Shown here one piece after another: positions 2,222 to 63,547 of a stretch of DNA of 64,000 bases (within the stretch, counting starts at the first letter, position 1; each line of letters starts with the position of its first letter). A model generated the notes under the pieces. The model saw only the letters and a program-made list of their open reading frames with translations. It ran no database searches and was not told where the DNA came from. Source of the DNA: Candidatus Nanoarchaeia archaeon. Its GTDB lineage: Archaea > Nanobdellota > Nanobdellia > Tiddalikarchaeales > Tiddalikarchaeaceae. The stretch lies in assembly GCA_041652755.1 (NCBI GenBank), contig JBAZGS010000002.1, forward strand, positions 24,516 through 88,515, in the 5' to 3' direction. The position numbers were made by a program, and so were the translations under genes.

Positions 2222-2734
2222 TTATTTCAGCATTTTTTCCATTAATAGTTCATCATAATAGGTGTTGTCAACTTTAAGCTCTTTTTTGCATACACCTATC
2301 TCTTCAAAGCCGTATTTTTTATATAGTCCAGCTGCAGCTTTCTGCACTGAATTAACGCTTAATTTAATCTTTATAATCTCTTTATTCTTTTTTATGTACT
2401 TTAATGCAGCTTCAATTAATTTGTTGCCAATGCCTTTACCCCTGTAGTTTTTATTAACATATACTCCGTAAATGTCTGCAACATGTTTTGTTTTCAGCCA
2501 TTTATTAAAAACTACAACAATAGTTCCTATAATCTTGTCATTATCAAGCGCGAATAAGACATTATTCATCCTTTTTTCCCATTCTTTTATAGGCAATTTT
2601 TCTTCTTCTTCATATGAGCTTCCAAAAGCTATAGGGTCGCTCTTTAAAGCTTCAAGTCTTATAATTTTGTATTCCTTGCATCTTTTTATGTTGAGTTTTT
2701 TTACAACAATCATGAAATAACTGTTATAACTCAA
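2222..2734 (-). CDS. GNAT family N-acetyltransferase
   Basis: NYRGKGIGNKLIEAALKY acetyl-CoA binding motif (R/Q-x-x-G-x-G/A). Confidence 0.7.
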   Translation of the reverse strand: MSYNSYFMIVVKKLNIKRCKEYKIIRLEALKSDPIAFGSSYEEEEKLPIKEWEKRMNNVLFALDNDKIIGTIVVVFNKWLKTKHVADIYGVYVNKNYRGKGIGNKLIEAALKYIKKNKEIIKIKLSVNSVQKAAAGLYKKYGFEEIGVCKKELKVDNTYYDELLMEKMLK

Positions 2735-2818: not shown

Positions 2819-3349
2819 ATGGACAGCACAAAAGATGTAAAGATTCCTGAAGACCGTGTAGGAGTGTTAATTGGAAAGAACGGAAGCGTTAAAAAAGAGA
2901 TAGAGAAAGCATTTAATGCTAAATTAGAAATTAGCTCTGATGGATTAGTGCTCATGACTGGAAAGGATTCGCTAGATTTATACACTTGCGAAAAAGTAGT
3001 TAAAGCAATAGGCAGAGGATTTAACCCTGAAGTTGCGTTACTTTTAAAAAGTGAGGAGTATGATTTTGAGTTAATGAATATTAATGATTATGCAAAAACT
3101 CAAAATGATTTAGATAGGCTAAGGGGCAGGGTTATAGGAAAAGATGGGGCAAGCAGGGATTTGATTGAGAAAAAAACCCAAACTTATATTATTGTTTATG
3201 GAAAAACTGTTGGAATAATAGGGAAATTAGAAATGGTTGGGCTCGCATTTAATGCAGTGGAAATGCTGCTTAAAGGGGCAAGGCACCCAACAGTATTTAA
3301 CTATATTGACAAAGAGTTAAGAAAAAAAGTGAAAGGAGTGGTGTTTTAA
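2819..3349 (+). CDS. KH-domain RNA-binding protein (Dim2/Pno1-like)
   Basis: Two KH GxxG loops (VLIGKNGSVKK, RVIGKDGASRD). Conserved neighbour of the RIO kinase gene. Confidence 0.7.
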   Translation: MDSTKDVKIPEDRVGVLIGKNGSVKKEIEKAFNAKLEISSDGLVLMTGKDSLDLYTCEKVVKAIGRGFNPEVALLLKSEEYDFELMNINDYAKTQNDLDRLRGRVIGKDGASRDLIEKKTQTYIIVYGKTVGIIGKLEMVGLAFNAVEMLLKGARHPTVFNYIDKELRKKVKGVVF

Positions 3350-3353
3350 AAAA

Positions 3354-5024
3354 ATGATTCAAAAAACAGTAGCTGATGATTTGGCTAATAAACATAAAAG
3401 CATTAGTATTGCGGAGTTCTTTGAAAAGAACAGGCACTTATTAGGTTTTGACAGCAAAATTAAAGCAATGCTTACCTGTGTAAAAGAAGCAGTTGATAAC
3501 AGCTTAGATGCTTGCGAAGAAAATGCAAGTGAGTTAAGGCAAAGAAAAAAACCCTTTGAATTGCCTGATATACTTGTCAGGGTTGATTTGATTCAAGGAG
3601 AAGTCTACAAAATAATAGTTGAAGATAATGGCCCGGGAATTCAGGCAGCAATTATTCCAAGAGTATTCGCGAAGTTATTATACGGAAGCAAGTTCCATAG
3701 GTTAAAGCAGGGAAGAGGGCAGCAGGGAATAGGTATAAGTGCTTCAATTCTTTACGGACAGTTAACAACAGGAAAACCAGCAAGGATAATAAGCAGAACT
3801 TCAAAAGATAAACCTGCGCAATTAGTTGAATTATTAATTGACATAAAAAATAATGATGCAAAAATCTTAACCAATGAAGAGTACGCTAAGTTCTCAAAAG
3901 ACACTGGAACAAGGGTTGAAATAACATTAGAAGGACTTTATAGGGGAACTGGTGATAAAAGCATTTTTGAATATTTAAGAAGAACAAGCATAAGCAACCC
4001 TCATGCAAAAATTACCTTCATTGACCCTGAAGGAAAAATGACTATTTTCAAAAGAGCAACAGAATCAATGCCAACTGAGACTAAAGAGATTAAGCCGCAT
4101 CCATGGGGATTAGAATTAGGAGTTTTAACAAGAATGATTGAAGAAACAAAGAAAACTTCAATTCAATCATTTCTTACTGATGAGTTAAGCAAGGTTGGAG
4201 CCCTTAATGCCAAGCAAATACTTGAAAAAATAAAAATTGACCCAAAAAGAAGGCCTGACACTATTAAAACAGAGGAAGCTGTTGAGCTGATTAAGGCTTT
4301 GCAGAAAGCTGACCTTCAAAGGCCGCCAACTGACTGTCTTTCACCAGTTGGCAGAGGCGCTATTGAGAAAAGCCTGAAAGTAGAATACCATCCTGAATAC
4401 ATTGTTGCAACAACTAGGCCTCCAAATGTTTACAGGGGTTATCCTTTCCAGATTGAAGCAGCACTAGCTTATGGAGGAGACATTCCTGAAGGAGGAGCTC
4501 AAGTATTAAGAGTTGCAAACAAGGTTCCATTATTATATGAAGGAGGAGCTTGTGCAATAACTATTTCAGTAAGCGAAATGGATTGGAAAAGGTATGGGAT
4601 TCCAAAAAATAGCGGAAGTTCAGTTCCAAGCGCTCCAATAATAATTTTTGTGCACATATGCAGCGTGTGGGTGCCTTTCACCTCTGAAAGCAAGGCAGCA
4701 GTGGCTAATTATCCAATAATTATTAAAGAGATAAAGTTGGCTTTGCAGGAATGCGCAAGGCAGTTAGGAGTTTTCATCAAAAGAAAAATGAAAATAAAAA
4801 GGGATGCCCAAAGAATTAACACATTCATAAAATATGGAGAGGTTTTGGCAGCTGCTTTGGCAGTTCTTTCAAGAAAAGATGAGAAAGATATGAAAAAAAT
4901 GATGAATGAAGTTTTAGAGAAAAAATATGGGGATGTTATAAAAAAGAAAGAGGAAATAATGAAAGAGGAATCTAAAGTAGTTCCAAAAAAATTAAAAGAA
5001 GAAAAAGAGAGTGATGAAGAATGA
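3354..5024 (+). CDS. top6B: DNA topoisomerase VI subunit B
   Basis: GHKL/Bergerat ATPase motifs (EDNGPGI, GxxGxG-like GQQGIG) and transducer domain. Overlaps the top6A start by 4 nt. Confidence 0.9.
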   Translation: MIQKTVADDLANKHKSISIAEFFEKNRHLLGFDSKIKAMLTCVKEAVDNSLDACEENASELRQRKKPFELPDILVRVDLIQGEVYKIIVEDNGPGIQAAIIPRVFAKLLYGSKFHRLKQGRGQQGIGISASILYGQLTTGKPARIISRTSKDKPAQLVELLIDIKNNDAKILTNEEYAKFSKDTGTRVEITLEGLYRGTGDKSIFEYLRRTSISNPHAKITFIDPEGKMTIFKRATESMPTETKEIKPHPWGLELGVLTRMIEETKKTSIQSFLTDELSKVGALNAKQILEKIKIDPKRRPDTIKTEEAVELIKALQKADLQRPPTDCLSPVGRGAIEKSLKVEYHPEYIVATTRPPNVYRGYPFQIEAALAYGGDIPEGGAQVLRVANKVPLLYEGGACAITISVSEMDWKRYGIPKNSGSSVPSAPIIIFVHICSVWVPFTSESKAAVANYPIIIKEIKLALQECARQLGVFIKRKMKIKRDAQRINTFIKYGEVLAAALAVLSRKDEKDMKKMMNEVLEKKYGDVIKKKEEIMKEESKVVPKKLKEEKESDEE

Positions 5025-6145
5025 AAGATAAGGACCAAGTTAGTTTGAAAATTCAGAAAAACAAGGAATTGACAGAGAAATTAGTTAATATTGGAAACAA
5101 TGTAATAGTGCAATTAAAAGATTTCCAAAATCCCAATGTTAACATTCCAGTAAGAAGCTTAAGCAATGTTTTTTTTGATGAAAAAGCAAGGTCATTAAGA
5201 TTAGGCAATGCAACAAGTGAAAGAAGCTACTTTAATTTATCCCAAGCTAAAAGTTTCATGCAAACAATGCTTGTTGCAAGCAAATTAAGGGAAGTTATTG
5301 AAAGAGGAAGCCAAGTAGGTTTAAGGCAGTTATTCTATTTATCAAAAGGAGGAATACCTGGAACTAAAGAGAACACTTTTGATTTGCAGAAAGAATGCGA
5401 CCCAATAGTTGAAGACATTGAAGGGGTGCTTAAGTGCTTAAGAGAAGAGATGGGAGTAGAGGCTGAGCGTAAAGGAATACTTGCAGGAGAGCTGAAAATA
5501 CTAGACAGCGGTGATGAAATTGACTGCTCAAAACTTGGAAGCAGCGGATATGGTATACCAAGCATTGTTGAAAAAGGAACAGTTGATTTTGTTGAATGCA
5601 AGGCAGAATATATTTTAGTGGTAGAAAAAGGGCAAACATGGAGTACCTTAAACCATGACAAGTTCTGGCAGAAAAACAAATGCTTAGTAATGACTGGAAA
5701 AGGACAGCCGGCAAGAGGGGACAGAAGAATGCTAGCAAGGCTTCATAGGGAGCTAGACTTGCCAGTTTACGTTTTCACAGATATGGATATTTGGGGATAT
5801 TACATCTATTCAGTATACAAGCAGGGAAGCATTAACTTAGCGCATTTCAGCGAGAACGCTGCAGTGCCTGATGCGAAATTTTTAGGATTTAAAATGAGTG
5901 ATGTTGAAAAATATAAGATTCCAAAAGAGCATTTAATCCCTATGAACAAAGGAGACTATAAAAGAATAAATGAAATATCAAATTATGACTGGTTCAAGGG
6001 CAATAAAGAATGGCAGAAAGAATTCAAGGAATTAACAAAATTCTCCAACAAGATTGAGCAGGATGCATTGGTTGGAAAAGGATTAGAATTCATGAGCAAG
6101 ATTTACTTACCTGAAAAAATAAAAACAAGGGACTGGATAGAATAA
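5021..6145 (+). CDS. top6A: DNA topoisomerase VI subunit A (Spo11-like)
   Basis: Spo11/Top6A winged-helix plus Toprim architecture, translationally coupled to top6B. Confidence 0.85.
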   Translation: MKDKDQVSLKIQKNKELTEKLVNIGNNVIVQLKDFQNPNVNIPVRSLSNVFFDEKARSLRLGNATSERSYFNLSQAKSFMQTMLVASKLREVIERGSQVGLRQLFYLSKGGIPGTKENTFDLQKECDPIVEDIEGVLKCLREEMGVEAERKGILAGELKILDSGDEIDCSKLGSSGYGIPSIVEKGTVDFVECKAEYILVVEKGQTWSTLNHDKFWQKNKCLVMTGKGQPARGDRRMLARLHRELDLPVYVFTDMDIWGYYIYSVYKQGSINLAHFSENAAVPDAKFLGFKMSDVEKYKIPKEHLIPMNKGDYKRINEISNYDWFKGNKEWQKEFKELTKFSNKIEQDALVGKGLEFMSKIYLPEKIKTRDWIE

Positions 6146-6867: not shown

Positions 6868-6922
6868 AAAAAGATGTTTTTTTATAGAAACTTTTAAATA
6901 TACATTTGTTTAATTATTTAAT

Positions 6923-7153
6923 ATGAGCGCTAAAGAAGCCAATAATTCTGGATTAGTAACATTTACTAAGCATGGATATCAATTAGGGATTTTTTCAAGT
7001 GGAGATTTTTTGCTTTATGAAACCAAAATTAACCCTAAAGGCAAAAAAGAATACGTTGTTTCTGACAAAAAAGATCCTTTAGAAATAATGCCTGAAAATG
7101 TGTTTAAAGAGCTTTCAGATGTTTTAAGTAGGTATAATAGTTCTAAAAACTAG
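6923..7153 (+). CDS. hypothetical protein
   Basis: 76-aa ORF. Confidence 0.25.
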   Translation: MSAKEANNSGLVTFTKHGYQLGIFSSGDFLLYETKINPKGKKEYVVSDKKDPLEIMPENVFKELSDVLSRYNSSKN

Positions 7154-7807
7154 CTTTTTTTTAAAAATATTTATAAGATTTTAGTTAATTTTATTTTATA
7201 TGAAAAAAACTGCTAAAAAATTATTAGATTACTTGCAAACCTATAAGTGGGCAGGAATAATCATTGCATTAATTGTAGTGACCTTATTTGTGTTTGGAGC
7301 ATAAAATTTGTGTTGACTGCCAGTTTTTTTAAAAAAAATTATAAAAAAAGAATTAAAAGTAAAGAATTCAGTCTTTAATTTGACTTATAGTCATCTCATA
7401 GATTTTATATGATCCACAGGAGATGGCTATTCCAGTGCTTACAACAATCATTGTTCCCATGTTAATTGTAGCTATCTGGTTCGTAAATATTGAAACTAGC
7501 CACATTGTAAGTATTGAAACAACCATTGTTAATAATGTTATTTTTGCCCCTTCCATGAACAATTCAGAAACATTATCTGAAAAAAGCACTTTAGTTAACT
7601 TATCCTTTCTTGCCATAATAATAAAATAAATATTTATAGCTTATAAACATTTTGAGAAATATTATTGCTTTACTCTTGAAGTTTAATAAGAGTCAAAATA
7701 GCAATTTATGCTTTAAATATTGAGTATTTTTGCATAAACATGCCCTGAATTTTTTAAAAATTAAATAAAAAAAATTAATAGAACTAATTGAATGATTTAA
7801 TAATCAA

Positions 7808-7906
7808 TTATTTCTTTTTTTTAGCAGGTTTTTTTCCCACTTTTTTTTTAGCAGGTTTTTTAGCAACAGGTTTGCTGCCACATCCACCGCATAATCCGCA
7901 ATTCAT
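7808..7906 (-). CDS. tiny basic peptide (32 aa) MNCGLCGGCGSKPVAKKPAKKKVGKKPAKKKK
   Basis: Hand-translated ORF missed by the ORF track. TATA-like tttataa sits about 25 nt upstream, so it is likely leaderless. A paralog lies 220 bp away with conserved 5' and 3' flanks. Confidence 0.45.
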   Translation of the reverse strand: MNCGLCGGCGSKPVAKKPAKKKVGKKPAKKKK

Positions 7907-8025
7907 GATAACTTATAAATCCTGAAAGATTATAAACTTTTTTCAAAATTTGAGTTTATACGTTAAAAAAAATAAAAAAAATTAAATAAAAAAAAAATTA
8001 GTGAATATTGAATTTAGAGATTCAA

Positions 8026-8118
8026 TTATTTCTTTTTTTTAGCAGCTGCTTTTTTCTTTGGTGCAGCTTTTTTCTTTGGTGCAGCTTTTTTTGGTGCTGC
8101 TTTTTTCTTTGGTGCCAT
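8026..8118 (-). CDS. tiny basic peptide (30 aa) MAPKKKAAPKKAAPKKKAAPKKKAAAKKKK
   Basis: Hand-translated. Has the same flanking architecture as the 7808-7906 ORF, with TATA-like tttataag about 25 nt upstream. Confidence 0.45.
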   Translation of the reverse strand: MAPKKKAAPKKAAPKKKAAPKKKAAAKKKK

Positions 8119-8180
8119 GCGTTAAATAAGTAACTGATATCTTATAAATCTTTTTTTTTATGGAGCAAAAAAGTTAATTT

Positions 8181-9434
8181 TTGCAAAATTTTTTACATTT
8201 TTCAGAGAAAAAAATTTATAATGAACTAATAAATAATTTTTTTATGAATAAATATTTTTTAATCCCCATTTTTTTTTTAATTTTTGTTTCAGGCTGCACA
8301 AATTTTAATGAAGGAATGAATAGAAGTGTAGAAAATGTAACTCAAGGAATAATAAATGAAATGAATGAAACTTTATCAAACATTTCTAATCAAATAAATG
8401 AGAGTTTAAATCAAGGATTGAATGATTCAATAAACAATTTTGTTTCAGGATTATTAAATATTACTAATAATGCTTTTTTAAAATCTCCAATTTCAACTTT
8501 TACTTTAGAGGATATAAATTATTTAGGAGTTAATTGCCAAGGCTCTGATTTAGAGATTGCTAATTGTATTAAAGATTGGCAAGAAAATAATATGATTTAT
8601 TTAGGTTTAATAGAAAGTTCAACTAATTATCCTGGTGCTGCAGATGCTATTCATTGGAACTATGCTATTCCAGGAATTTTTCCAACAAAAGAGGTTATAA
8701 GACAGAGAAGTGAAGGTAACAAACCCTATGGAGTTTGTTATGATTATGCAACAATTTATTGCAGTATTGCAGATTATTATGGACTATCTTGCAGGGTTGC
8801 AAATACTATTACTAAGCCTAGCCAAAGGCCCAATAGTGGCATTGAATTTACTACAGGATTAAGATATGAAGAATATGAAAGACTGAAAATCGAACTTGAC
8901 AAGCAAGGATTAGATTATGATTTTATACTAATGAATAAAGTATTAAGAGAAACTCCTGAACATTATTGGTCAGAAGTATTAATTGATGATGAATGGATTG
9001 TTATAGATGGCAGTGGAACTGATTCGCAAACACAATATAAAGATGCTAATGATTGGGAAGTAACTAATTGGACTAAACTTTACCTAGAAAGCAATATTAG
9101 TTATTATTTGGGATTTAAGGATGATTTAAACAACAGAATCAAGGTTTTTAATATTGATGATTATATGTTTTCTGCGCAATACTCTTTGGGATTGCCTGTG
9201 CCTTATTATAGTTCATGCACAAATGTTTGCGGATTTTTTGAAGGAAAGAATCCAATGTGCACATTTGAATGCCCTTTTTTAGCAAGCTTTTTCTCTTGCT
9301 ATGATTCTTGCTCAGGAAAAAAGTTTTACAAAATATGCGACTATGTCTGCAATGATGAAGAAGCAGGTTATGAAGAATGCTACCAGGAATGCAGCGGGGA
9401 AGAATTAGATATTGGTTGCTTTAATGATTGCTGA
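8181..9434 (+). CDS. secreted transglutaminase-like cysteine protease-fold protein with Cys-rich C-terminal tail
   Basis: N-terminal TM/signal with lipobox-like VSGCT. YGVCYDYATIYCS (Cys), HYWSEV (His) and DDEWIVIDGSG (Asp) fit a transglutaminase-like catalytic triad. The last 90 aa carry about 16 Cys. Confidence 0.5.
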   Translation: MQNFLHFSEKKIYNELINNFFMNKYFLIPIFFLIFVSGCTNFNEGMNRSVENVTQGIINEMNETLSNISNQINESLNQGLNDSINNFVSGLLNITNNAFLKSPISTFTLEDINYLGVNCQGSDLEIANCIKDWQENNMIYLGLIESSTNYPGAADAIHWNYAIPGIFPTKEVIRQRSEGNKPYGVCYDYATIYCSIADYYGLSCRVANTITKPSQRPNSGIEFTTGLRYEEYERLKIELDKQGLDYDFILMNKVLRETPEHYWSEVLIDDEWIVIDGSGTDSQTQYKDANDWEVTNWTKLYLESNISYYLGFKDDLNNRIKVFNIDDYMFSAQYSLGLPVPYYSSCTNVCGFFEGKNPMCTFECPFLASFFSCYDSCSGKKFYKICDYVCNDEEAGYEECYQECSGEELDIGCFNDC

Positions 9435-56834: not shown

Positions 56835-56897
56835 ATGAATACAAAGAAACCAGAAGCTCCAAAATCAAAGAAACCAGCAGCACCAAAAAATGAATGA
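56835..56897 (+). CDS. tiny basic peptide (20 aa) MNTKKPEAPKSKKPAAPKNE
   Basis: Hand-translated; ggagg lies 9 nt upstream. Confidence 0.35.
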   Translation: MNTKKPEAPKSKKPAAPKNE

Positions 56898-56922: not shown

Positions 56923-56950
56923 AATAAAGAATAGGGCCCTATTCTTTATT
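56923..56950. terminator. perfect 28-nt palindrome aataaagaatagggccctattctttatt between convergent genes
   Basis: The sequence equals its own reverse complement. Confidence 0.45.
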
Positions 56951-56984
56951 TGATAATTTTTTTGTTTATTTTTTAAAAAATGAA

Positions 56985-61322: not shown

Positions 61323-61484
61323 TAAAAATTTTTTGAGTTATTACTTTTTTTTATTTTTTTTGCCTTGTTGTTTTTAAACCTTTTTTTATGTTTTCTTTAA
61401 AAAAAAAAGTTTTTAAATGCTTGTATTCAATATTAGTATAACATTTTGTTAAATGTTTAAAACTCGTGAGGAGGAAGTGTGGCG

Positions 61485-61571
61485 ATGGCACCTGTAAAAA
61501 AAGGAGCAAAGAAACCTGCTGCTAAAAAAGTAGCAAAGAAATCAAAAGCACCAGCAAAGAAAAAAAAATAA
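61485..61571 (+). CDS. tiny basic peptide (28 aa) MAPVKKGAKKPAAKKVAKKSKAPAKKKK
   Basis: Hand-translated; gaggagg RBS lies 6-12 nt upstream. Confidence 0.4.
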   Translation: MAPVKKGAKKPAAKKVAKKSKAPAKKKK

Positions 61572-61591: not shown

Positions 61592-61732
61592 ATGAACAAC
61601 TACAATTTTAAAGCAAATGACGATGACGAAGACTTCGACGATGACGAAGACTTAGATGATGAAGACTCTGATGATGAAGATTTTGATGATGAAGACTCAT
61701 CAGAAGATGAAGACTCAAGCGAGGATTATTAA
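61592..61732 (+). CDS. tiny ultra-acidic peptide (46 aa; 32 D/E)
   Basis: Hand-translated MNNYNFKANDDDEDFDDDEDLDDEDSDDEDFDDEDSSEDEDSSEDY; sits 20 nt downstream of the basic peptide ORF. Confidence 0.35.
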   Translation: MNNYNFKANDDDEDFDDDEDLDDEDSDDEDFDDEDSSEDEDSSEDY

Positions 61733-61803
61733 TATTCGTCATTAACTTTTAATTAATTTTATTTTTTTATTTAATTTTTTTAAAAAAATTTAGGTAATAC
61801 GTT

Positions 61804-61968
61804 ATGAAATGTGACATATGCAAAAAAGCAATGAAAGGATTGACAAAATGCGTTGAATGCGGTTCAATGTTTTGCGTTAATTGCGGAGAACAAAAAAGAG
61901 AAAGATGCAGTATTTGCATGCAATTCGAAGACGATTTTGATAACCAAGACAGCTCTTCAGATGATTAA
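61804..61968 (+). CDS. small double zinc-ribbon protein (4x CxxC, 54 aa)
   Basis: Hand-translated MKCDICKKAMKGLTKCVECGSMFCVNCGEQKRERCSICMQFEDDFDNQDSSSDD. Confidence 0.4.
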   Translation: MKCDICKKAMKGLTKCVECGSMFCVNCGEQKRERCSICMQFEDDFDNQDSSSDD

Positions 61969-63133: not shown

Positions 63134-63547
63134 ATGGTTGAAGAAAAAAAGCTTGAAAACGATGAAGAAAAGCTTGAAGTTGAAGAAGATTTAAATGAAG
63201 AAGAAGAGTCAAAAATGGCTTTTGCCAATGCAGAAATAGTAAGGCTAATTAAGAAAAATTTGCCTGAAGGAAGAATGATAAAGAAAAGGGTAAAAGTCGG
63301 AATGAACAAGTTTTTGGAAGAGATGGCAACAGAAGTATGCAAAAAGCTTGCGAACGAGCCATATTCTTACATAGAAATAGACATGCTTGAAAGAGCAATA
63401 GAGCCCTATAAAAATATTAAAAGTTTAGAAGTTGAAAAGAACAGAATCATTGCAAATCTTAACAAAATCAAAGCTGATTGCGACGTAATGGTTGATGATA
63501 TTAACAGAAAATTTTCAATGTTTGAATCTGAAGAAAAAGAATACTAA
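63134..63547 (+). CDS. histone-fold protein with acidic N-terminal tail
   Basis: AEIVRLIKKNLPEGRMIKKRVKVGMNKFLEEMATEVCKKLANEPYSYIEIDMLERAI aligns by eye with HMf / NF-YB-like histone folds (I.RIIK, LEEM, KLA, I...D.E.A). Confidence 0.5.
   Translation: MVEEKKLENDEEKLEVEEDLNEEEESKMAFANAEIVRLIKKNLPEGRMIKKRVKVGMNKFLEEMATEVCKKLANEPYSYIEIDMLERAIEPYKNIKSLEVEKNRIIANLNKIKADCDVMVDDINRKFSMFESEEKEY

Follow-up and report, generated by a model that had tools for sequence, protein, structure and literature searches.

The 64,000-nt stretch analysed here (the window; contig JBAZGS010000002.1 of a Candidatus Nanoarchaeia archaeon) carries on its minus strand two neighbouring micro-genes, pep1 and pep2, which are paralogous, autonomous protein-coding genes that very probably are expressed, as predicted from their sequences. 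Pep1 encodes a peptide of 32 amino acids (aa) and net charge +12, in which an N-terminal cysteine head (C3, C6 and C9) is followed by a polylysine tail, while pep2 encodes a 30-aa peptide of net charge +15, the interior of which is an 18-nt (6-codon) tandem repeat in 3.9 copies. The stop-proximal ends of both open reading frames (ORFs) are identical, finishing with ...AAAAAAAAGAAATAA. Both minus-strand ORFs and their peptides were found exactly as an original prediction, made from the DNA letters, had written them. They had been described there as missed by the ORF track, but IMG, ENA and Logan already call them 'hypothetical protein'; the IMG entry for pep1 says only this, pep2 is already a called gene in public assemblies, and the NCBI annotation apparently omits both. 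The window is AT-rich (GC ~31%) and has archaeal genes around the locus (Topo VI, PFOR, eIF-1A, RIO1 and RNA polymerase subunits), with Topo VI A being 85–95% identical to genes in metagenome-assembled genomes (MAGs) named Woesearchaeota or 'Candidatus Nanoarchaeia'; the source is an uncultured DPANN archaeon of that type. As a chance test, ATG-started ORFs of 20–60 aa with at least 35% Lys and at least 80% K/A/P/G/S/T/V were counted in the window and in simulations that keep the local composition. Three such lysine-rich ORFs were observed vs. none in 200 simulations, indicating that this ORF composition is not produced by chance.

Public contigs with the exact peptides match the locus DNA at 99.9–100% identity and are thus uninformative on selection, so syntenic relatives were gathered via neighbouring genes, namely Topo VI A in species-representative genomes, an AsnB/diphthamide-synthase fusion in metagenomes, and the homologues of p82, the gene immediately downstream, 17 of which were found at 51–100% identity. 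The metagenome scan with the AsnB/diphthamide-synthase fusion yielded five loci, one of them (L093) informative. This yielded eight more lineages from the same Woesearchaeales clade, in which p82 is 68–91% identical and the micro-gene orthologues lie at the same position, upstream of the p82 homologues. Pep1 orthologues of 23–33 aa and pep2 orthologues of 12–28 aa were each found in six relatives, and L107, a very-low-coverage contig, held a pep2-like copy with a read-through across a frameshift. In contrast to these eight lineages, when 1.84 billion representatives were scanned in full by HMMER with pep1, one true homologue (94% identity) and one low-complexity artefact were retrieved. For peptides this short, homology across databases tells little, and it is synteny, not homology search, that reveals the family.

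The orthologues were then compared for signs of selection at the level of translation. In 14 of 14 copies (7 pep1 and 7 pep2, counts that share ancestry), TTTATAA starts at −30 to −32, and ATG and TAA are in frame despite an ATG-to-stop length of 36–99 nt, although slippage of the 18-nt tandem repeat in pep2 can itself give in-frame length changes. Among the pep1 orthologues, both TGC and TGT serve as codons for the invariant Cys3 and Cys6, and Gly7 has GGT, GGA and GGC. Of 45 G residues inside A-runs, 42 are in the third codon position, giving AAG (Lys), vs. two GAA and one AGA, while the two shifted frames of the same DNA contain 34–36 Glu or Arg codons. The A-runs are 10 nt or shorter throughout, which we read as keeping the codon runs translatable and not slippery. 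A lack of reading-frame conservation in relatives had been named beforehand as the outcome that speaks against these peptides; the frame was found to be kept. Based on these sequence comparisons, the protein-coding nature of pep1 and pep2 is well supported and highly probable.

The TATA-like box that had been claimed ahead of each ATG was seen at −30 to −23 in both genes. That of pep1 is retained in L011, where a second TATA-like string beside the ATG is not. TTTAWA starts at −33 to −28 in 27 of the 63 long ORFs of the window, indicating that a leaderless geometry is the norm of this genome and that the micro-ORFs are standard in this respect; the organism is predicted to make mostly leaderless mRNAs. 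With a B recognition element (BRE) and TATA box ~26–27 nt upstream of the predicted transcription start and an oligo-T end, pep1 and pep2 have the layout of archaeal leaderless single-gene units. Downstream, the two genes had been said to share near-identical 3′ flanks of ~55 nt, which was an overstatement, as only two blocks are exact, one of ~19 nt that spans the stop codon (AAAAAAAAGAAATAATTGA) and a 17-mer (TTTTTTATTTAATTTTT), with diverged sequence between them. The paralogy that had been drawn from these flanks holds up nevertheless, as a promoter/stop/terminator cassette is common to both genes. The 17-mer has exactly three copies in the 64 kb, behind pep1, pep2 and the pep3 operon described below and nowhere else, while ~0.35 matches would be expected by chance with one mismatch allowed.

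Candidate hairpins were found at both 3′ ends. TTGAAT...ATTCAA arms recur downstream of the stop codon in almost every pep2 orthologue and in most of those of pep1, enclosing ~5 to 29 nt, and equivalents of the pep1 3′ hairpin are present in L100, L102 and L093, the last with a different stem sequence. Folding of the 3′ flanks gave no significant energy gain over shuffled sequences (z between −1.2 and +0.5), so that the recurrence in orthologues is the sole support of the hairpins; TTGAAT..ATTCAA is not enriched genome-wide either (5 vs. 2.4 expected). A scan for sigma-70 promoters and intrinsic terminators, which is unsuited to archaea, found no terminator, and Rfam at the gathering threshold detected two tRNAs only in the window and no known RNA at the micro-genes.

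With regard to the peptides themselves, the K/A/P (H1-like) repeat stressed in the original prediction proved to be specific to this species group, and the tails are K/T-, K/S- or K/S/N-rich elsewhere, with T, S, N or V as spacers in place of A/P. What is kept in the orthologues is a lysine content of 33–58%, a near-absence of acidic residues and a net charge of +7 to +15. The tails are Lys-based, with one Arg across 15 coding sequences, and hydrophobic residues are almost lacking. Unlike the K/A/P repeat, the Cys head proposed for pep1 is upheld by the relatives, all seven pep1 copies starting with M-x-C-x-x-C-G, usually extended to C-x-x-C-G-x-C-G. Selection thus appears, from sequence comparison, to act on composition (lysine density, small spacers, no Glu/Asp) and not on exact sequence or length. 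AlphaFold2 gave pep1 no secondary structure (predicted template modelling score 0.14), which lends weak support to disorder only. Searches of Pfam and NCBIfam at E ≤ 1 returned no family for pep1, pep2 or the third peptide pep3, apart from meaningless low-complexity matches of 7.8–10 bits, a PDB sequence search gave 0 matches even at E = 10, and no description of such peptides was found in the searchable literature.

Two further members had been proposed in the window, at 61485 and 56835, and the two fared differently. The former, pep3, is genuine, and by its composition, ending and shared terminator is a true paralogue as judged from sequence, but a Shine-Dalgarno motif GGAGG at 61470–61474 indicates that it is leadered, not leaderless. 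The ORF at 56835 is not ultra-basic; in the sister species an A is replaced by E, leaving a net charge of +2, and public callers annotate an ORF antisense to it. Pep3 and a polyacidic ORF 20 nt downstream are predicted to be co-transcribed as an operon. Compared with the sister species (L088), both substitutions in the pep3 coding sequence are synonymous, as are 4 of 4 in the acidic ORF, the protein of which is identical (6/6 for the operon). The acidic ORF is found at 3001–3141 in L088 and at 2770–2910 in L110, where it has the same length and the start MNNY.FKANDDD, and it is better conserved than pep3. Its product may be an acidic partner, a chaperone, or a DNA mimic.

We propose, with a probability somewhat short of even and by analogy, that the peptides are autonomous disordered polycations that coat or bind nucleic acid in a protamine- or H1-tail-like manner. 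By their sequences, pep1 and pep2 are each a leaderless unit of their own, with an A-rich BRE and TTTATAA at −30, an ATG predicted to coincide with the transcription start or to lie directly beside it, 12–33 codons, TAA, a short hairpin and oligo-T terminator tracts; the mRNA would be ~130–160 nt. Gene status, promoter and terminator layout, conservation pattern and composition are shown by the sequences, and binding of nucleic acid or metal, dimerization and the pairing with the acidic peptide are inferred. In the proposal, the peptides would bind polyanionic nucleic acid non-specifically via charge neutralization, with which the selection at the composition level fits, and the bound peptides would compact or chaperone DNA or RNA. 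The M-x-C-x-x-C-G(-x-C-G) head of pep1 would most likely share a metal ion between peptides or form disulfides, these being the simplest roles for a head that lacks an intramolecular Cys4 site, and either link would make pep1 a bivalent, bridging polycation. Pep3 would be made together with the 46-aa polyanion, which could buffer or chaperone it. Being small, basic, encoded in a single-gene operon, highly abundant and DNA-binding are the reported predictors of archaeal nucleoid-associated proteins (Hocher et al., 2022, PMC7613761), and pep1 and pep2 are small, basic and encoded by single genes. From their charge, size, disorder and single-gene units, a role in the nucleoid or as nucleic-acid chaperones is plausible.

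Several points weigh against this proposal. We infer the function from charge and analogy. Polylysine peptides in general bind DNA in vitro, so that binding alone would be no proof of a nucleoid role. No pep1 has four ligands for a self-contained zinc site, and the third Cys is absent in one of the seven (L093) and at position 5 in L100. The genes are dispensable and labile, as L098 has no pep2, L009 and L107 have no pep1, and L108, the most distant p82 locus, has neither, while pep2 is down to 12 aa in L009. In L110, the pep3 position is taken by an unrelated 16-aa basic ORF, MMHSKKRQQRNMPPKK. Judged from the searches, the family appears to be limited to a narrow clade, or undetectable beyond it, and the location of pep1 and pep2 among small membrane-protein genes (p39, p82 and p34) hints at a membrane-related role.

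A more elaborate version of the proposal, to which we give a low probability, is a small, fast-evolving polyelectrolyte toolkit that would comprise free polylysine, a metal-bridged (zinc-hook-like or Fe-S) MxCxxCG dimer cross-linking nucleic acid, and the 46-aa polyanion forming a disordered complex of high affinity, or a coacervate, with the polycation. If true, it would be a minimal archaeal analogue of protamine/H1 plus an acidic chaperone, possibly replacing polyamines or histone tails in a reduced genome. Should nucleic acid indeed be coated by these peptides, no smaller free-standing protein that coats chromatin or RNA would be known from archaea. The locus offers a test case of charge neutralization of nucleic acid in reduced-genome symbionts. 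It also shows that composition-selected micro-genes of 12–33 codons can persist across species, and pep3 with the acidic peptide offers biophysics a natural polycation/polyanion pair. As trypsin-based metaproteomics would destroy lysine-rich products, an abundant class of such peptides could stay invisible.

Compared with known systems, the three peptides lack a globular domain, a family match, Arg in place of Lys, and four Cys; they are therefore best regarded as low-complexity polycationic analogues of nucleic-acid binders, and not as members of these families. The window pep2 and pep3 resemble the C-terminal domain of histone H1, or the domain-less kinetoplastid H1, in being Lys/Ala/Pro-rich, disordered and strongly cationic, and presumably in electrostatic DNA neutralization and condensation. 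In contrast to H1, they come from an archaeal and not a eukaryotic host, have no winged-helix domain and no homology, and are 12–33 aa vs. >50–100 aa long, and the A/P spacers of the basic tail are swapped in the orthologues as described, leaving lysine richness as the conserved part; the GH1/GH5 domain (PF00538, H1/H5) gave no Pfam match at E ≤ 1, 28–32 aa being too short for it. Hc1/Hc2 of Chlamydia, AlgP of Pseudomonas and the mycobacterial HU tail are likewise prokaryotic, lysine-rich, repeat-built polycations and known DNA binders, and AlgP is reported to associate with polyphosphate granules (PMC9239181); but they are far larger or joined to folded domains, whereas these peptides stand alone as micro-proteins behind leaderless promoters of their own, and no Pfam or NCBIfam model of Hc1 or of curated bacterial H1-like families was matched. 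Protamines are similar in size (~30 aa) and in having ~40–55% of basic residues, are likewise unfolded, and are also made as separate products of their own genes. They differ in using Arg where these peptides use Lys (as expected at ~31% GC), in showing no homology, and in belonging to the animal germ line and not to an archaeon; the Arg-rich core of protamine P1 (~50 aa, sperm) was not found and Pfam gave no match to it. Inter-protamine disulfides and zinc bridges offer an analogy for the pep1 head only.

For that head, the closest archaeal likeness is to the haloarchaeal C(P)XCG micro-proteins, which are <70 aa and have CxxCG knuckles (PMC11241148, PMC6562870), pep1 having CGLCG with an overlapping CGGCG. 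That class has at least two separate motifs and four Cys ligands (PMC11241148, PMC6562870), and its haloarchaeal proteins are acidic and folded, whereas pep1 is polycationic and disordered. Pep1 has 2–3 Cys within 7–9 residues, its paired CxxCG motifs overlap and share Cys6, and it therefore has no intramolecular Cys4 site. The 4Fe-4S ferredoxin motif (CxxCxxCxxxCP) is not present either, as pep1 reads C-x2-C-G-x-C-G-x-K-P with no fourth Cys and no Fer4 Pfam match. M-x-C-x-x-C, as in HMA/Atx1, occurs in 7/7 pep1, but there is no room for the ~70-aa beta-alpha-beta-beta-alpha-beta fold and no Pfam HMA match. A precursor of ribosomally synthesized and post-translationally modified peptides or of thiazole/oxazole-modified microcins was rejected, as the Cys and Gly residues cluster at the very start of the peptide and none of the loci has an adjacent cyclodehydratase or radical S-adenosylmethionine maturase, and a lipobox lipoprotein was rejected as there is no signal peptide. 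Pep3 and the acidic peptide, of opposite charge, disordered and predicted to be produced together, are similar to the prothymosin-alpha/H1 and nucleoplasmin/histone pairs, except that there is no homology, both partners are micro-proteins, and the interaction is hypothetical; in L110 the acidic member is conserved, with a different basic ORF beside it.

Other explanations of the same genes were weighed against binding of nucleic acid. One is that the peptides have no function and that the loci are A-rich small RNAs, translation-sensing or regulatory mini-ORFs of lysine-codon runs, or young ORFs drifting on a duplicated cassette. A-rich low-complexity DNA is indeed stop-free in every sense frame, pep2 changes through slippage in steps of 15 and 18 nt, lengths are highly variable with repeated gene loss, a comparison of the window with L011 shows less conservation in the coding part of pep2 than in its 3′ hairpin and terminator, and pep3 is an upstream ORF before a better-conserved acidic one. 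Against this stand the strong codon-phase asymmetry (42 AAG vs. 2 GAA and 1 AGA) and the synonymous variation at Cys and Gly positions that are invariant in pep1; acidic residues are avoided in every tail, the ATG is fixed at the predicted transcription start, the A-runs stay short, and Rfam gave no match, which together make this explanation improbable. Lineage-specific ribosome- or rRNA-associated micro-proteins, that is, lysine-rich fillers like eL41 or bacterial bL36 that would stabilize a reduced DPANN ribosome, are suggested by the size of 12–33 aa and extreme basicity, which are those of the smallest ribosomal proteins, by a CxxC in pep1 like the zinc knuckles of several small ribosomal proteins, and by a promoter geometry suggestive of constitutive expression. 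We consider this unlikely, as ribosomal micro-proteins are fixed in length and sequence, while these peptides vary in length, shift their spacers and get lost; no ribosomal family was matched in Pfam or NCBIfam, including eL41 (Arg/Lys-rich, helical, ~25 aa, of fixed length), and the genes are outside ribosomal-protein operons.

The target could instead be a polyanion other than nucleic acid, such as polyphosphate granules or anionic membrane lipids, on which the peptides would act with p39, p82 and p34. This would agree with the conserved grouping of pep2 and pep1 with genes for tiny membrane proteins (p39 and p82), a cluster that in some relatives is beside type-IV-pilus-like T2SSE and T2SSF. 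In eukaryotes, a Cys cluster at the N-terminus with polybasic sequence behind it, as in pep1, is a classical layout for membrane targeting. The H1-like AlgP of Pseudomonas offers a precedent, being reported to space polyphosphate granules evenly (PMC9239181). The cluster is loose, though, as the window has lost p39 and L093 is without the transglutaminase-like neighbour, and no polyphosphate genes were seen nearby. Archaea are not known to have a lipidation machinery or signal for such a Cys motif, and we regard this target as unlikely. DPANN archaea live attached to hosts, and the peptides might be exported by the episymbiont against its host or competitors, like leaderless bacteriocins or cell-penetrating peptides. 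Short, highly cationic, fast-evolving paralogues are typical of antimicrobial peptides, and in most relatives the divergent neighbour is an apparently secreted transglutaminase-like, Cys-rich lipoprotein, but neither a signal peptide nor an amphipathic or hydrophobic face was found, nor an adjacent ATP-binding cassette (ABC) exporter or immunity gene in any locus examined, making export very unlikely.

The coordinates of the micro-genes and of the features around them, together with the orthologous peptides, are listed in Table 1.

Table 1. Micro-genes, predicted signals and adjacent features in the window, and orthologous peptides in relatives.
Feature	Position (strand)	Description
pep1	7808..7906 (-)	MNCGLCGGCGSKPVAKKPAKKKVGKKPAKKKK
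pep2	8026..8118 (-)	MAPKKKAAPKKAAPKKKAAPKKKAAAKKKK
pep2 promoter (predicted)	8141..8159 (-)	A-tract (BRE-like) 8149-8159 and TATA box TTTATAAG 8141-8148, 22 nt upstream of ATG
pep1 promoter (predicted)	7929..7943 (-)	A-tract and TATA box TTTATAAT 7929-7936, 22 nt upstream of ATG
Hairpin after pep2 stop (candidate)	8008..8025 (-)	TTGAAT-6 nt-ATTCAA
Hairpin across pep1 stop codon (candidate)	7785..7810 (-)	TAATTGA-12 nt-TCAATTA
pep2 T-rich terminator region (predicted)	7965..8000 (-)	Holds exact 17-mer TTTTTTATTTAATTTTT at 7977-7993
pep1 T-rich terminator (predicted)	7756..7775 (-)	Holds exact 17-mer TTTTTTATTTAATTTTT at 7756-7772
Third exact 17-mer copy	61763..61779 (+)	Closes the pep3-acidic operon; conserved in L088 and L110
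pep3, third polycation gene	61485..61571 (+)	28 aa, MAPVKKGAKKPAAKKVAKKSKAPAKKKK, net charge +13
Polyacidic ORF	61592..61732 (+)	46 aa, 27 Asp/Glu, MNNYNFKANDDDEDFDDDEDLDDEDSDDEDFDDEDSSEDEDSSEDY, 20 nt downstream of pep3, own GAGGT site
Proposed fourth member (doubtful)	56835..56897 (+)	20 aa, MNTKKPEAPKSKKPAAPKNE, net charge +3, KKPEAPK-type repeat
p82	7368..7616 (-)	82 aa, predicted two-helix membrane protein, own TATA, immediately downstream; synteny anchor
pep1 orthologue, L011		MNCGLCGGCGSKPVAKKPAKKKVAKKPANKKK
pep1 orthologue, L093		MNCGICDVKKPVAKKAPKKKAAAKKKK
pep1 orthologue, L098		MGCEGCGGCGSRKTVTKKATKKKTFKKTASKKK
pep1 orthologue, L100		MNCGCCGEKKPAAKKKTSPKKKK
pep1 orthologue, L102		MSCGTCGGCGSKKTAVKKKVVKKTTTKKK
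pep1 orthologue, L103		MNCGSCGACGGKPAPKKKSKDKKKSKSKK
pep2 orthologue, L011		MAPKKKAAPKKKVAAKKKAPAKKKK
pep2 orthologue, L102		MAPKKKAAPKKAAPKKAAPKKAAAKKKK
pep2 orthologue, L093		MAVKKKAAKKKAAKKK
pep2 orthologue, L103		MVAKKVKSKAKPKTGSKTKKKK
pep2 orthologue, L100		MDSKKKSNSKNKKSSKHK
pep2 orthologue, L009		MVAKKKAAKKKK

The micro-genes are part of an island of small genes (6900–7620 in the window, and the loci upstream of the p82 homologues) consisting of pep2, pep1, a p39 remnant, p82, p34 (tail-anchored) and p76, most of them with their own leaderless promoter. In relatives, p39 is a third micro-gene between pep1 and p82, which encodes a 39-aa tail-anchored membrane peptide (e.g., MVNKLSKIDLCQKISKLGIINNYFYLFAIVLIVIIKLQN), has its own TATA at ~−30, and is intact at 2833–2952 in L102, 2833–2952 in L098 and 4174–4293 (-) in L009. 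In the window it is a decayed remnant at 7670–7741 (-) with an internal stop (MFMQKYSIFKA*IAILTLIKLQE*). In L098 and L102, the island adjoins the type-IV-pilus-like T2SSE/T2SSF genes. On the other side, the divergent neighbour of pep2 at 8181–9434 (+) is a transglutaminase-core protein (PF01841, E 8e-7) that starts with a lipobox-like sequence and is very rich in Cys towards its C-terminus; it has no counterpart in L093 and is fast-evolving, being 46–51% identical where Topo VI A is 89–95% identical. That the peptides are substrates of this neighbour was considered and rejected, as it appears to be secreted and is missing in L093. A 69-aa lysine-rich protein (MIKKKAVKRKPAPKKVVARKPAVKKKVAKKVVARKPASKK...) is encoded at 2228–2437 (+) in L009, where it closely follows Topo VI and a tRNA, indicating that larger polycations of the K/A/P/V type are also present in the clade.

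Around the other proposed members, a perfect palindrome of ~30 nt, AAATAAAGAATAGGGCCCTATTCTTTATTT, was found at 56925–56955 between the doubtful 56835 ORF and a convergent OB-fold gene; the sister species has kept this palindrome, which probably is a bidirectional terminator. Directly after the pep3-acidic operon, at 61804–61968 (+), there is a protein of 54 aa that has four CxxC pairs, hence eight Cys, and an acidic tail, which has weak RING / B-box-like Pfam matches (E 0.004–0.02), is kept in L088 and L110, and has two database homologues at 83–91% identity. A histone-fold-like ORF (63134–63547 (+), 137 aa) with an acidic N-terminal extension lies ~1.5 kb downstream of the pep3/acidic/RING-like/DUF362 cluster; its match to PF00808 is borderline, at 21.0 bits vs. 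a cutoff of 21.4. The earlier statement that the genome shows one histone-fold gene fits the window through this ORF, but has no bearing on the rest of the genome.

The search with Topo VI A (5021–6145 (+)) also returned loci L018–L086, which are below ~63% identity and are nearly all matches to Planctomycetota MAGs (42–50%) and not to other archaea; these may reflect the choice of search pattern, or a real bacterial-DPANN relationship. L008 and L103 (GCA_028699085.1, JAQVVF01) are contigs of the clade within a MAG labelled 'Patescibacteria group bacterium', and L007 and L010 (CAZMEY01) belong to one MAG in which Topo VI A is present twice, at 92% and 85% identity to that of the window. This label and the double Topo VI A suggest mis-binning or mixed strains in public MAGs.

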